Source of the DNA: Bacilli bacterium
GTDB lineage: Bacteria > Bacillota_I > Bacilli_A > ML615J-28 > CAG-698
Assembly (NCBI GenBank): GCA_050177775.1
Contig: JBFXGS010000003.1
Location: forward strand, 1 to 38,097
Direction of reading: 5' to 3'
Length of the DNA stretch: 38,097 nucleotides
Program-made: the position numbers and the translations under genes
In this document: positions 21,133-24,893 of the stretch, in pieces
How the letters are laid out: each line of letters opens with the position of its first letter
Numbering within the stretch: position 1 is the stretch's first letter
The notes under the pieces: generated by a model
Told to the model about the DNA's origin: nothing
The model's input: the letters and a program-made list of their open reading frames with translations, nothing else
The model's database searches: none

Positions 21133-22322
21133 TTATTTGCAAATCATAAAGATTGAATCAGTTTCGTTTAATATTATTTCGTCTTTTTGATTTAAATTTC
21201 CTTTAAAAATTTGGGTTATTCCATCTTTTACAATGCCGATAACTTTAAATTGGTTGTTACTTGATTTGTAAATAGAAAGGATTAAATCAGATTTTGCATG
21301 AAAGGAAAGAGGGAATTTACAGTTAAAAACAGCTTTAGTTTGATAAGCATATATTTCATATGATTTTTCGGCACCTTCCCCATCATAAGTTAATAAGTCT
21401 TGATATAGAGGAAATAAGAAACGGTTTTTACGAAGTTGAGTCATCATTTTACTGATATACTCATTACTGATAATGGTGTTTGTGACATGGTAACTTTTGG
21501 CGATGGCATAGTGTTTCGGATCAAGAAGGTCAATGACAATTTTAGCTTGATGCTTTTTGACGATTTCTTGAGCCATAAGGAGCGTTAATAAAACATCAAC
21601 ATCATAATCTTTTTGTTCCAGAGCGTCATTTAATAGAATTAAAACAGTATCAATTTTTTCAAGTTCTTGAATTTATTTTACAAAAACATTGAGTTGTTCG
21701 TTTTCTTCAGATAAAATTATGACGGCTTTAGCTTGCTCAATATGAGCTAAAACGAGGTCGCTTTTTGATAAGACTTCACCTTCTCTCACAATTATTTTTA
21801 TTTTGCCGCGGTGAACTTTTTTATCAAGCAGTTTGCGCTCAATTTCCGTTTCGATTGCTTCTTTTTTGTGTGAAGATAAAACAACAATATGCGTATTTCC
21901 TTCATTAAATCCGAAATTAACTCAACGGCCTTCGCATTCCAATTCAAAATTAAAATGTGGTCATAAATAAACAATTTGTTTTTTCCGACTTCTGATTGTT
22001 CAATAATTGAAGAAAACCAGCTGGCGACATAACCAATTATTCCGCCCGAAAAAGTAATCATGGAAGTAAGAATAACAAATATCGAAAATATTCTAATTGA
22101 ATAATCAACATCCGGATCATAAAATTCCGGTTCAAGCATCCACGTAATCCCCGATTTCCAAAGCGATGAAACGAGATTGCCATGGGTATCGAAAGACAAT
22201 AAAGATGCTAAAAGAGAAGACCCTCACCGCAAAACAATGTTAAAAATGACGATTATTAATAAAACAAGACCCCGAGTGCTTTTGGCACGAACAATACTGA
22301 AAAACCTTTTTATCGCTTCCAT
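21133..22322 (-). pseudogene. Disrupted CASTOR/POLLUX-like (TM + RCK) ion channel gene
   Basis: Manual translation: MEAIKRFF...NIVLR*(TGA 22224-22226)GSS..WMLEP..HILILNWN..ELISD; frameshift ~21910 to NTHIVVLS..IIVREGEVLSKSDL..EQAKAVIILS; TAA at 21673-21675; then in frame into the 21133-21576 ORF. Confidence 0.82.
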
Positions 22323-22467: not shown

Positions 22468-22496
22468 TTGCATTTTTATAGAATTTATAATATACT
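22468..22496 (+). promoter_or_regulatory. Sigma-A promoter of candidate sRNA
   Basis: TTGCAT-17 bp-TATACT; predicted +1 at G22503. Confidence 0.7.
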
Positions 22497-22502
22497 ATTA
22501 TT

Positions 22503-22601
22503 GCGCCGAGAGGCGTACTTATCCCCTACATATAGCAGTGAATAAGAAATTATTCACAACATCCCCTTCCTAAAACTGAGCCTTACCCCGGCTCAGTTTT
22601 T
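22503..22601 (+). ncRNA. Candidate ~100-nt small regulatory RNA with three unpaired CCCC motifs
   Basis: GCGCC-GAGA-GGCGT and GTGAATAA-GAAA-TTATTCAC GNRA hairpins; terminator AAAACTGAGCC-TTACCCC-GGCTCAGTTTT; own promoter; no ORF in the track. Confidence 0.72.
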
Positions 22602-22625
22602 CCTTATAAAAACAATGTTCCTACA

Positions 22626-22654
22626 TAGACAAACACGGCTTCATTTGTTATAAT
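22626..22654 (+). promoter_or_regulatory. Sigma-A promoter for exonuclease operon
   Basis: TAGACA-17 bp-TATAAT with TG extension, immediately downstream of the sRNA terminator. Confidence 0.7.
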
Positions 22655-22673
22655 ATTTGTGAGAAGGATTATT

Positions 22674-23555
22674 ATGGATTACATAGCTTTTGATTTTGAG
22701 ACGGCCAACCAACACCCCACCAGCGCCTGCAGTATTGGTTTGGTTGGTGTTACAAATAATAAAATGGAATTTTGCCAACAATACCTAATTAATCCTGAAG
22801 AAGAATTTAGTGATTTCAATATCAATATTCATCATATAACTCCCGAGATGGTTTTAAATGCCAGCACCTTTCCCGGTGTTTGGGAACAAATAAAGCCTTA
22901 TTTTCAAAACACGATTGTTTTTGCTCACAATGTGGCCTTTGACATTGGTGTTTTGAAAGCTTTAATAGAAAAATATGATTTAGAACCACCGCAAGTTAAG
23001 TTTGGCTGTACTTGGAAGATCGCTTCAAAATTATGGAAAGATGAACTTAAGAACCACCGTTTGAATACATTATCGGCTTATTTAGAGGTTGACCATCAAC
23101 ATCATGATGCCCTTAGTGACGCCAAGGTTTGCGTTGAAATAATTACGCGTGGGCAAAGAATGACCAGTACGAGTGATGTCTACGAACTCTACGATGCGCT
23201 GGGAATTCAATTTGGGAAATACGACCAAGAGCGCTTTTTACCAACCGTTAATAAATACATAAGAAAAGCGCCCGTGAAAGTGATAGAAAATGAGCTTCTT
23301 AATAATAAAGTCGTTTGTGTTCTTGGAAAACCCAAAACTTTGACGAAAGCAAAGTTAACAAATTTGCTCATTAATAATGGTGTTTTTCTTGAAAAAAACA
23401 TAAACCGAAGTTTGGATTATGTGTTGGTTTTAGGAAATTGTCCTAAAGCAAAACTTATGGTGGCGGTGATGCTTTCACAACACGGAGCGCCATTAAAGTT
23501 CATTAATGAACAAGAAGTGTTGGCGATGATAAAAGAGGAACCATGCCAGAATTAA
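22674..23555 (+). CDS. DEDDh 3'-5' exonuclease (DNA pol III epsilon-like) with C-terminal BRCT-like domain
   Basis: AFDFETAN, AHNVAFD, HHDALSDA; C-terminal NKVVCVLG..SLDYVLVLG..FINEQE. Confidence 0.88.
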   Translation: MDYIAFDFETANQHPTSACSIGLVGVTNNKMEFCQQYLINPEEEFSDFNINIHHITPEMVLNASTFPGVWEQIKPYFQNTIVFAHNVAFDIGVLKALIEKYDLEPPQVKFGCTWKIASKLWKDELKNHRLNTLSAYLEVDHQHHDALSDAKVCVEIITRGQRMTSTSDVYELYDALGIQFGKYDQERFLPTVNKYIRKAPVKVIENELLNNKVVCVLGKPKTLTKAKLTNLLINNGVFLEKNINRSLDYVLVLGNCPKAKLMVAVMLSQHGAPLKFINEQEVLAMIKEEPCQN

Positions 23556-24397
23556 GTTTTATTGCATCAGAAGCAAACGATCTTTTAACTTTTTTACAAT
23601 CTTTTCATTTGTCTAAAAAAAACATTCAAGAATTGTTTACCAATAAAAGCTTGGCCATTAACGGAATGGAAGTTATCAAAAATGTTCGTTATGAAAAAGG
23701 GGATTTAATTCTCATCGACTATTATGAAGACACGAAAATAACCCCTTTTTACCAAAAATTAGATATTGTTTATGAAGACGAGGACATCCTTGCTATTAAC
23801 AAACCCATCAACTTGTTGGTTCACCCCGACGGTAATAGCGAACAAACGCTTGATAATATGGTGTTTGCATATTATTTGCAAAAGAACAATTCTTTAAATC
23901 CTCGGCACTTGCATCGATTAGATAAAGACACAAGCGGGTTAGTATTATATGCAAAGCACTTGTTGGCTCACGCCTTTTTAAACTACCAAATTGAAAAAGA
24001 ATTAATTGAAAAACATTATTATGCAATTGTGCAAGGGGAAATGGAAAAGCCGAAAGGTATTATTGAACTTCCCATCGGCCGAAACCGTCACGAATCCAAC
24101 AAATACTTAGTAAATTTGCAGGGAAAATCAGCGGTTACCATCTATCATACCATCAAATCATCCCACCATTTCTCTTTGCTTGATGTGGTTATCAAGACGG
24201 GAAGAACCCACCAAATTCGGGTTCACTTTGCCCATTTTAACCACCCCGTTGTGGGTGATAAACTATATGGAAAACCAGCCCATCGATTAATGCTTCACGC
24301 TTACGGGTTAGACTTTATTCATCCAAGAACAAGGAATAGGGTAAGCATCAGAACAAGAATTCCCGATGATTTTTTATTTAAAAGCGAAAAGAGTTAA
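23543..24397 (+). CDS. RluA-family pseudouridine synthase
   Basis: IVYEDEDILAINKP, HRLDKDTSG, TGRTHQIRVH, VVGDKLYG, LMLHA. Confidence 0.93.
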   Translation: MPELSFIASEANDLLTFLQSFHLSKKNIQELFTNKSLAINGMEVIKNVRYEKGDLILIDYYEDTKITPFYQKLDIVYEDEDILAINKPINLLVHPDGNSEQTLDNMVFAYYLQKNNSLNPRHLHRLDKDTSGLVLYAKHLLAHAFLNYQIEKELIEKHYYAIVQGEMEKPKGIIELPIGRNRHESNKYLVNLQGKSAVTIYHTIKSSHHFSLLDVVIKTGRTHQIRVHFAHFNHPVVGDKLYGKPAHRLMLHAYGLDFIHPRTRNRVSIRTRIPDDFLFKSEKS

Positions 24398-24398
24398 T

Positions 24399-24893
24399 AT
24401 GCGAACTTTTATTGGAATTAAGCCCCTGGATTGTTTATATGATTTGGTAGTTGTTCAAAACAATTTAAGAACGCAAACCCAAGCCCATTTTACAAAACCC
24501 GAAAACATTCATTTAACTTTGTTTTTTCTGGGTGAAATTGATGATTCACAAATTGAGAAAGTAAAGAAGGTTTTTGATAAAATGGTTTTTAAAAGTTTTA
24601 GTTTGGAAATAAACGAAATAACCAATTTCAAAGACATGATTATTGCAAAAACAAAAAAGAATTTTCAATTAGACGGACTCTATAAAAAGTTAAAAGATCT
24701 TTTAATGGACCAAGGCTTTTTATTTGAAAATCGCCCTTATTTTTCCCACATAACTCTTGCAAGAGAAACTAGTTATCAAGTAAAAAAAGACGTTTCTTAT
24801 TTGTTTAATGTCAACACGGTTACTTTGTTTTCTTCCGAGCGTGACAACAATGGTTTAAAATATCGACCAATTGGCCGTTTTGACCTTGATTAA
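24399..24893 (+). CDS. thpR: RNA 2',3'-cyclic phosphodiesterase (2H phosphoesterase, ThpR/LigT)
   Basis: MRTFIGI start; two HxT motifs (HLTLFFLGE, HITLAR). Confidence 0.85.
   Translation: MRTFIGIKPLDCLYDLVVVQNNLRTQTQAHFTKPENIHLTLFFLGEIDDSQIEKVKKVFDKMVFKSFSLEINEITNFKDMIIAKTKKNFQLDGLYKKLKDLLMDQGFLFENRPYFSHITLARETSYQVKKDVSYLFNVNTVTLFSSERDNNGLKYRPIGRFDLD

Follow-up and report, generated by a model that had tools for sequence, protein, structure and literature searches.

Does the DNA upstream of an exonuclease gene in a member of the Bacilli encode a regulatory RNA of its own, and if so, how would it act and to which of the known RNAs is it related? The question is raised by positions 22468–22601 of a 38,097-nucleotide (nt) stretch of contig JBFXGS010000003.1 (assembly GCA_050177775.1, Bacilli bacterium), the whole of which is referred to here as the window. 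A first-pass annotation, made from the sequence letters alone, had proposed at this place a standalone small RNA (sRNA) with two GNRA hairpins and three exposed CCCC seeds. The present analysis finds a complete gene anatomy, a structure that covaries across 70 distinct copies in related genomes and no counterpart in Rfam. We hold with moderate confidence that the locus is an independent gene for a trans-acting regulatory sRNA of ~100 nt, which would repress translation by pairing its single-stranded linkers with ribosome-binding sites (RBSs).

Anatomy and structural conservation of the RNA

All coordinates are window positions on the + strand and the transcript is written in RNA letters. The locus comprises the following features:

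22468–22473, + strand: −35 box TTGCAT, read from the sequence; the TTG is kept in homologues, with TTGACA in some lineages
22491–22496, + strand: −10 box TATACT, separated from the −35 box by a 17-nt spacer; homologues have TATAAT or TATACT at an equal distance from H1
22503–22601, + strand: predicted sRNA transcript of ~99 nt, with putative ends, from the fold and the covariance models
22503–22516, + strand: hairpin H1, GCGCC-GAGA-GGCGU, from RNAfold
22517–22537, + strand: linker 1, 21 nt, single-stranded, with the conserved motif ACUUAUCCCCUACAUA; unpaired in the minimum-free-energy (MFE) and centroid folds
22538–22557, + strand: hairpin H2, GUGAAUAA-GAAA-UUAUUCAC, from RNAfold
22558–22571, + strand: linker 2, 14 nt, single-stranded, AACAUCCCCUUCCU, constituting C-rich region 2; unpaired in the fold
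22572–22601, + strand: Rho-independent terminator with an 11-base-pair stem, 22572–22582 pairing with 22590–22600

C-rich region 1 (UUAUCCCCU) lies inside linker 1 with its CCCC at 22523–22526, the CCCC of linker 2, a linker that is anti-Shine-Dalgarno-like, occupies 22563–22566, and a third CCCC is found in the terminator loop, UUACCCC, at 22583–22589, upstream of a T run that ends at 22601. All three CCCC runs are unpaired in both the MFE and the centroid fold, which RNAfold resolves into the same three hairpins at −32.2 kcal/mol. Dinucleotide-shuffled versions fold on average at −12.9 kcal/mol (standard deviation, sd, 2.6), which corresponds to a z-score of −7.49 for the sRNA, and none of 200 shuffles folds as well. 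The residue that opens H1, G22503, lies 7 nt past the −10 box and is, judging by the position of the promoter, a plausible +1.

The predicted structure is maintained through extensive sequence change. In an alignment of the 70 distinct copies, which was fitted to the covariance model and is hence biased towards the structure, 96.3% of the pair cells hold standard pairs as against 63.5% (sd 0.9) when the partners are shuffled, a level reached in none of 500 shuffles; sliding the partners by 1–3 columns leaves 33–44% of the cells paired. Compensatory changes affecting both sides of a pair are seen in 21 of the 22 pairs, a count attained by 2 of 500 shuffles, and an independent alignment of 30 copies with MAFFT, folded with RNAalifold, recovers compensatory change in 11 of 16 pairs. 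All 5 core pairs of H1 show both-side changes, with 95.7% of the cells paired over the 70 copies. The hairpins can also be recognized in the raw sequences, where the H1 stem reads GCGCC/GGCGU, GCGUU/GACGC, AAUUC/GAAUU, GUAAC/GUUAC or GCGAC/GUCGC depending on the lineage. In H2, 7 of 8 pairs have compensatory changes; its basal G-C pair is unvarying in all 60 copies with letters at that position, the pair adjoining it is U-A in 56 of 61, and the base of the hairpin (GUGA...UCAC) is nearly invariant as sequence. All 8 modelled pairs of the terminator covary, with 98.3% of the cells paired.

The flanking signals and the linkers are likewise conserved. A promoter of the form TTGNNN-N16-18-TANNNT is in place in 62 of the 70 copies, where shuffled upstream sequence would yield 3.9, and a T run of at least four residues ends 63 of the 70. 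Six of the eight copies that lack this promoter belong to family f13 (families are numbered here, f1 being that of the window) and to genome G188, the f13 copies having TTTACA at −35. As to a presumptive inducing signal, inspection of the upstream regions by eye, made without a motif search, revealed nothing in common other than the −35 and −10 boxes and an A-rich tract. Whereas the stems drift, the linkers are kept as sequence: linker 1 has CCC in 70/70 copies and UAUCCC[CU]U in 66/70, its columns being invariant in the 30-copy alignment A1, and linker 2 has CCC in 67/70 and CCCUUCC in 56/70. By comparison, the terminator loop contains a C-run in 27 of the 70 copies (CCCC in 14), and a GNRA loop caps H1 in 28 and H2, whose loop is variable, in 5. 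The family is thus defined by the two linker C-motifs only, and whether a copy has GNRA loops or a CCCC in the terminator loop depends on its lineage.

These results bear directly on the first-pass annotation. Its layout of hairpins, linkers and terminator is reproduced at base level by the sequence and RNAfold, as is its dedicated promoter with +1 at the first stem base (TTGCAT-17-TATACT, with the putative start G22503 opening H1), and the structural conservation on which it had made its proposal depend is found in the 70 copies. Its two GNRA hairpins and three CCCC seeds describe the window copy accurately, but they do not hold as traits of the family, in which only the linker C-motifs are general.

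A variation on this anatomy is seen in the f16 copies (L123–L127, L137–L145), which have, downstream of a terminator-like hairpin (UCCGCC-GAGA-GGCGGA), another short hairpin (CCCUUUUUAUAGGGA) and a T run of greater length. The f16 transcript may hence be ~20–30 nt longer and contain four hairpins.

Distribution, neighbourhood and independence of the gene

A BLAST comparison with 61 related genomes recovers the element in all five same-genus genomes and in 8 further genomes of the family with E below 1e-15; the window's own genome has a single copy. Scanning 185,579 species genomes with an exact two-motif pattern returned 25 loci, 23 of which are genuine; the other two, L040 and L046, are chance matches in GC-rich DNA without hairpins and were excluded from all alignments. 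The genuine loci are in metagenome-assembled genomes titled Tenericutes, Acholeplasmatales, Acholeplasmataceae, Bacilli, Bacillales, Bacillota, Erysipelotrichaceae and, in four instances, Bacteroidales. These four records, titled 'uncultured Bacteroidales bacterium', carry the sRNA at L045, L047, L056 and L057. Since two of them, L047 and L056, are identical to the copies of G004 and G001, respectively, both of the window's genus, the Bacteroidales labels are probably wrong.

Two covariance models extend this distribution, the first (R1) made from 30 distinct copies and the second (R2) from 70, the building step of the latter having taken in 65 loci with duplicates of identical copies omitted. 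In the window, R1 matches 22498–22614 with 128.1 bits and R2 scores 116.5 bits. R1 detects the element in 26 of 57 genomes and 8 of 18 genera of the family and in 52 of 106 genomes of the order; R2 raises the latter figure to 62 of 106, in 20 of 31 genera, comprising 25 of 56 f1 genomes besides the window's own and 36 of 49 in f2. Ten f1 genera yield no R2 match, some of their genomes being 97–98% complete. For the class, the figures come from a sample of 151 genomes, such that absence means not found in the genomes searched. Here R2 matched 31 genomes, including 6/6 in f2, 9/11 in f13, 9/9 in f16 (with 1–3 copies per genome) and 2/7 in f1, together with single genomes in f6 and f19 and weak, doubtful single matches in f3 and f22; there was none in the 18 other families sampled (e.g., f8 0/13, f9 0/10, f12 0/8, f15 0/10 and f21 0/5). 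Several of the f13 and f16 carriers are closed genomes with 99% completeness. As the covariance models find the element across the order and in three or more additional families of the class, it is not a product of chance.

The gene neighbourhoods, analyzed at 29 loci with eight short flanking open reading frames (ORFs) left out of the Pfam search and the minus-strand ORF at 21798–22196 taken as the window's left flank, add an evolutionary dimension. Of nine f2 loci, six have the sRNA downstream of topA in the same orientation and five have it upstream of ftsY; topA is likewise a flanking gene at two of the three f13 loci and one of the four f16 loci. Such topA-sRNA synteny across three families argues for vertical descent. 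The loci with topA/ftsY synteny are L092, L095, L097, L100, L104, L107 and L109 in f2, L123 and L126 in f16, and L131 and L136 in f13. The 12 f1 loci are instead flanked by genes for a GDSL-type esterase (6), an aBig_2 protein (7), an RNase_T exonuclease (3) or a pseudouridine synthase (2). Together, these patterns suggest that the sRNA is an old element passed on by vertical descent within the Mollicutes-type lineages possessing it, and that it has apparently relocated within the window's own family, keeping its promoter and terminator in every setting.

Further, the gene has multiplied as a unit. Tandem arrays of three copies are found in G010 (L010, G010:C2:46786-47288) and G027 (L011, G027:C5:293976-294481) and of two copies in G080 (G080:C3:1375-1825), and f16 genomes have 2–3 dispersed copies. 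The arrays repeat the full promoter-to-terminator unit, the copies differing chiefly in the H2 loop and the terminator. No conserved small ORF was found among the sRNA copies. The small RNA of the signal recognition particle (SRP; RF00169), which was considered on account of the adjacency to ftsY, was rejected: the SRP RNA of this genome is at C114:2836-2931 (50.1 bits, cut-off 40) and has no Rfam match in the window.

In the window itself, the sRNA is followed by a gene for an RNase_T-type exonuclease (ORF 22629–23552, ATG at 22674, Pfam RNase_T E 2.3e-22), which is provided with a promoter of its own:

22626–22654, + strand: promoter of the downstream gene, TAGACA-17-TATAAT, with 11/12 matches and an upstream TG in the consensus scan; not part of the sRNA

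Because this separate promoter is strong, the sRNA element is not the leader of the exonuclease gene. With its promoter, terminator, conserved structure, lack of coding potential and a position independent of its neighbours, the locus has the features expected of a free-standing gene for a putative trans-acting sRNA. The earlier annotation was therefore well founded in placing the next gene under a separate promoter and in denying the element the role of a 5' untranslated region (UTR). Its view of the sRNA gene as standalone agrees with the recurrence of the promoter and T run, the lineage-specific neighbours and the self-contained arrays described above. It had also recognized no known family, and the Rfam check that it called for returned none at threshold, the maximum being 30 bits for the RsaE model (cut-off 79) and 24 bits for FsrA (cut-off 80).

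The genes around the sRNA in the window include three tightly packed + strand ORFs at 22674–24893, an arrangement resembling an RNA-metabolism operon; from the translations alone, the second ORF is RluD-like (pseudouridine synthase) and the third 2'-5' RNA ligase-like. Upstream, a divergent ORF of 133 amino acids on the minus strand (21798–22199), without a Pfam match at E 1e-6 or better, is separated from the sRNA promoter by a 270-nt spacer.

Proposed mode of action and rival explanations

We infer that the RNA would block RBSs because its anatomy, with open, pyrimidine-rich, near-invariant linkers between hairpins, is that of the C-rich sRNAs of Firmicutes. In RsaE/RoxS, FsrA and LhrC of Bacillales, the C-rich regions pair with Shine-Dalgarno sequences and translation is blocked. 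By analogy, a sigma-70-type promoter would initiate transcription at or near G22503 and the intrinsic terminator would end it near 22601. The three hairpins would keep the two linkers open with their near-invariant motifs, UAUCCCCU(ACAUA) and (A)CAUCCCCUUCCU, and in the window's lineage the terminator loop would place a third CCCC on offer. The C/U-rich linkers could then pair with the purine-rich Shine-Dalgarno regions of a set of mRNAs; for instance, a duplex of linker 2 (CCCCUUCCU) with AGGAGGGG could comprise 8 pairs, of which one is G-U. Such pairing would block binding of the 30S subunit, and would probably be followed by decay of the mRNA, without recourse to Hfq. Indeed, Hfq was not found in any of the five genomes searched, including the window's own (84% complete), and action of the sRNA would therefore be Hfq-independent, as for RsaE. 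A precedent for the critical step is available in RoxS, where, in passages of PMC4409812, mutating four C residues of its C-rich region 3 (CRR3) abolishes binding to the ppnKB RBS along with the block on 30S binding.

Potential targets were sought by computing duplex energies between the three C-rich regions and positions −30 to +15 of 1,213 crude gene calls in the window's genome. The top predicted site, to be taken as a lead only, is in an ABC permease gene (AGGAGGGGAUGU, −20.5 kcal/mol). Other candidate targets are the genes for a protein of unknown family, a QueG-like 4Fe-4S protein, a GGDEF-PAS-hemerythrin protein, DnaG, a ferric-reductase-like membrane protein, a pyridine-nucleotide disulphide oxidoreductase, CitF and an ABC-3 metal permease. 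The neighbouring ftsY was tried as a target and rejected, its RBSs being ordinary and showing no complementarity by eye. Complements of the linker motifs occur in the genome 18 times at up to three mismatches in one set and 31 times at up to two in the other, with one in each set being the gene's own antisense; none of the 18 and 3 of the 31 are within translation-initiation regions.

Several observations weigh against this reading. In the target scan, initiation regions did better than gene interiors, but shuffled linkers scored equally well, and there is therefore no specific target signal. The GGGG in the RBS of the two best sites (the ABC permease and the unknown-family protein) is present in one of four orthologues each, and the genome offers no long complement of the linkers other than the gene's own antisense. 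Further, the invariant ~15 nt of linker 1 go beyond the 6–8 nt needed for a seed and could mark a protein-binding site. A consensus promoter/terminator scan of the window listed neither the sRNA promoter nor the sRNA terminator; the −35 box shares only three of its six bases with TTGACA, and there is overlap between the T run and the terminator stem. As the scan left both out, the case for their reality is one of conservation. Part of the stretch is contained in 21 of 23 public sequencing runs, mostly as DNA, and the four RNA-labelled runs were examined as assembled contigs, which cannot show transcript ends. One of these (X17) has a 231-nt contig at 22567–22797 with a depth of 2.4, which takes in the terminator and reaches into the beginning of the following gene but leaves out the sRNA body. 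Another (X20) has a 164-nt contig over 22488–22602 with 49 unlike upstream bases, including a TTGCA box; since it carries the promoter sequence of a relative, it is DNA-like and comes from that relative. The remaining two (X19 and X21) have no contig at the locus.

Of the alternatives, a divergent orthologue of RsaE/RoxS survives best. It would be one of classification, with the mechanism unchanged and a C-rich family predating the split between Bacillales and the Mollicutes-type lineages, and we regard it as possible, if doubtful. Both RNAs are ~100 nt long with several unpaired C-rich regions and a terminator at the end, and AUCCCCU is a partial repeat in both linkers that recalls the duplicated CCCCUUUGUU of RoxS. 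The RsaE model (RF01820, cut-off 79 bits) gives 29.8, 25.1, 19.3 and 14.3 bits on four homologues, from f16, f2 and f16 in the case of the first three, and is the top-listed Rfam family for the f16 copy with 19.3 bits. In these first three, the same local alignment recurs, matching the RsaE consensus gUGAAauuaa...AaauUUCUCCCAUCCCCUUUGUu with GUGAAUA...UAUUCACACAUCCCCUUCCU, which would be compatible with remote homology. These scores, however, are far below the cut-off and within the noise: a search of the order at E up to 1 lists 27 matches, 26 of them at unrelated loci, with the best reaching 32.4 bits. Moreover, the window copy has no RsaE match even at E up to 10. With B. subtilis detected as a control in both searches, no RsaE over the cut-off was found in the 106 genomes of the order and none at E 0.001 or better in the 149 scored genomes of a phylum sample. 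The 10-nt repeat of RoxS is not present as such. The neighbourhood of rsaE/roxS probably also differs from the topA-ftsY setting, which would count against orthology.

Among the matches of the RsaE model at other loci are L114 (G012:C4:32673-32787, minus strand; 32.4 bits) and L115 (G004:C28:2017-2129, minus strand; 29.9 bits). Both have a C-rich stretch followed by a strong terminator, as in the sequence ...GCCCAUCCCAAAAA...UUUUCCCCUUUUUUGG... from a same-genus genome, and may represent either another C-rich sRNA or just gene 3' ends.

Alternatively, the RNA could bind or titrate a protein, with the C-rich linkers as sites for, e.g., a KH-domain or cold-shock-type protein. The extent of the invariant segment in linker 1 and the retention of the H2 base as sequence, which exceed the needs of a short seed, would be accounted for in this way, as would a target scan without specific result, and multi-copy arrays are typical of titrating RNAs. 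Nevertheless, we judge this improbable: no candidate partner emerged, and none is consistently encoded beside the sRNA at the loci examined, there are two or three motifs per RNA, unlike in CsrB-type sponges, and the characterized sRNAs of this anatomy treated in passages of PMC4409812 all act by base pairing. Finally, a cis element, be it a 3' UTR or a processed end of the gene upstream (topA elsewhere) or a terminator-type leader of the downstream gene, is suggested by the location immediately downstream of topA in the same orientation, frequently with ftsY next, in f2, f13 and f16, but is very unlikely indeed given the promoter in front of most copies, the separate promoters of the downstream genes (that of the exonuclease in the window and the TATAAT boxes of ftsY), the retention of promoter and terminator after moves to unrelated f1 neighbourhoods, and the tandem and dispersed copies.

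Significance and comparison with known C-rich regulators

The independent, RBS-pairing sRNA proposed here would constitute a new, old and unannotated family of a known kind of regulator. No family in Rfam 15 reaches its gathering threshold anywhere in the window. In the excerpts covered by a literature search, no description was found of this RNA or of a conserved C-rich sRNA in Mollicutes-type bacteria. Nor was any conserved trans-acting sRNA found to be described for these lineages, and for Acholeplasma and Erysipelothrix sRNAs there was nothing pertinent among the matches listed; in the excerpts of PMC8632094, Acholeplasma is mentioned only for an upstream-ORF motif of aroF. Judging by the excerpts, 'Mollicutes' does not occur among the matches listed for RsaE, RoxS and C-rich sRNAs, and RsaE combined with Mollicutes leads only to S. 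aureus vesicles, which are irrelevant here. The linker motif strings were met with only in unrelated papers, mostly on eukaryotic biology.

Trans-acting sRNAs are usually restricted to one genus or family. Against this background, the present element is an sRNA conserved in sequence, structure and, in part, synteny in no fewer than five families of bacteria that have small genomes and are for the most part uncultured. In the abstract of Durand et al., RsaE is called the only trans-acting sRNA besides 6S RNA that Staphylococcus and Bacillus have in common (PMC4409812). With the family come a covariance model by which these genomes can be annotated, a case in which to test regulation without Hfq in reduced genomes, and a means of addressing whether the RsaE-type design was inherited from an ancestor or arose by convergence. 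More speculatively, and with the same reserve that attaches to RsaE orthology itself, it might be the first trans-acting riboregulator with wide conservation in the Mollicutes-type phylum: an ancient anti-Shine-Dalgarno mimic and deep orthologue of RsaE/RoxS that stayed beside topA in three families, gave rise to sibling copies in some genomes and disappeared from the mycoplasma-like families. If true, a single C-rich sRNA lineage would have governed translation in Hfq-less Gram-positives before the split between Bacillales and the wall-less forms. The finding would gain in interest with a demonstration of the RsaE link or of a global anti-Shine-Dalgarno role.

As for the individual comparisons, LhrC of Listeria is an RNA of ~110 nt with UCCC in a hairpin loop, in a single-stranded segment and in the terminator loop, and has sibling copies, some of them in tandem. 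It is approached by the present family in the tandem arrays of 2–3 copies in three genomes and the dispersed siblings of f16. The differences are that no Rfam match to LhrC is seen at E up to 10, that the sequences are not similar, that just one copy is present in the window's genome, and that the H1 and H2 loops of the window copy are without a C-run.

FsrA (RF02273) is the best Rfam match of the window copy, scoring 24.1 bits (cut-off 80; E 0.0066 with 371 nt searched) and extending over 22538–22601, where H2, the C-rich linker and the terminator with its UACCCC loop align to the model. In passages of PMC4409812, FsrA, a Fur-regulated RNA of Bacillus, likewise has three C-rich regions. However, much of the match is due to the C-run of the terminator loop, which is confined to the minority of copies noted above, FsrA is not listed for the f16 and f13 copies, and no Fur box was seen in the promoters by eye, without a formal test.

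RsaE and RoxS are controlled by Rex, among other regulators. They share with the present RNA not only its length, terminator and multiple unpaired C-rich regions with an internally repeated C-motif, but also the standalone gene, the Hfq-independent setting and, in the local alignment, a GUGAA...UUCAC hairpin followed by CAUCCCCUU. On the other hand, the linkers AUCCCCUACAUA and AUCCCCUUCCUA share only AUCCCCU, in place of the exact 10-nt duplication, the 5' hairpin and the sequence of linker 1 differ, and the hosts here are fermentative with small genomes. In RoxS, the duplication contains CRR1 and CRR3, and transcription of RsaE/RoxS is under ResD/SrrA, with a conserved box near −65 (both from passages of PMC4409812).

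Given the sub-threshold scores and these differing features, the RNA does not fall within RsaE, FsrA or LhrC, and by sequence and structure it appears to form a family of its own. It is best read as a new Hfq-independent, C-rich, anti-Shine-Dalgarno sRNA family that would work in the manner of RsaE/RoxS and LhrC, and that may be a remote relative of RsaE.

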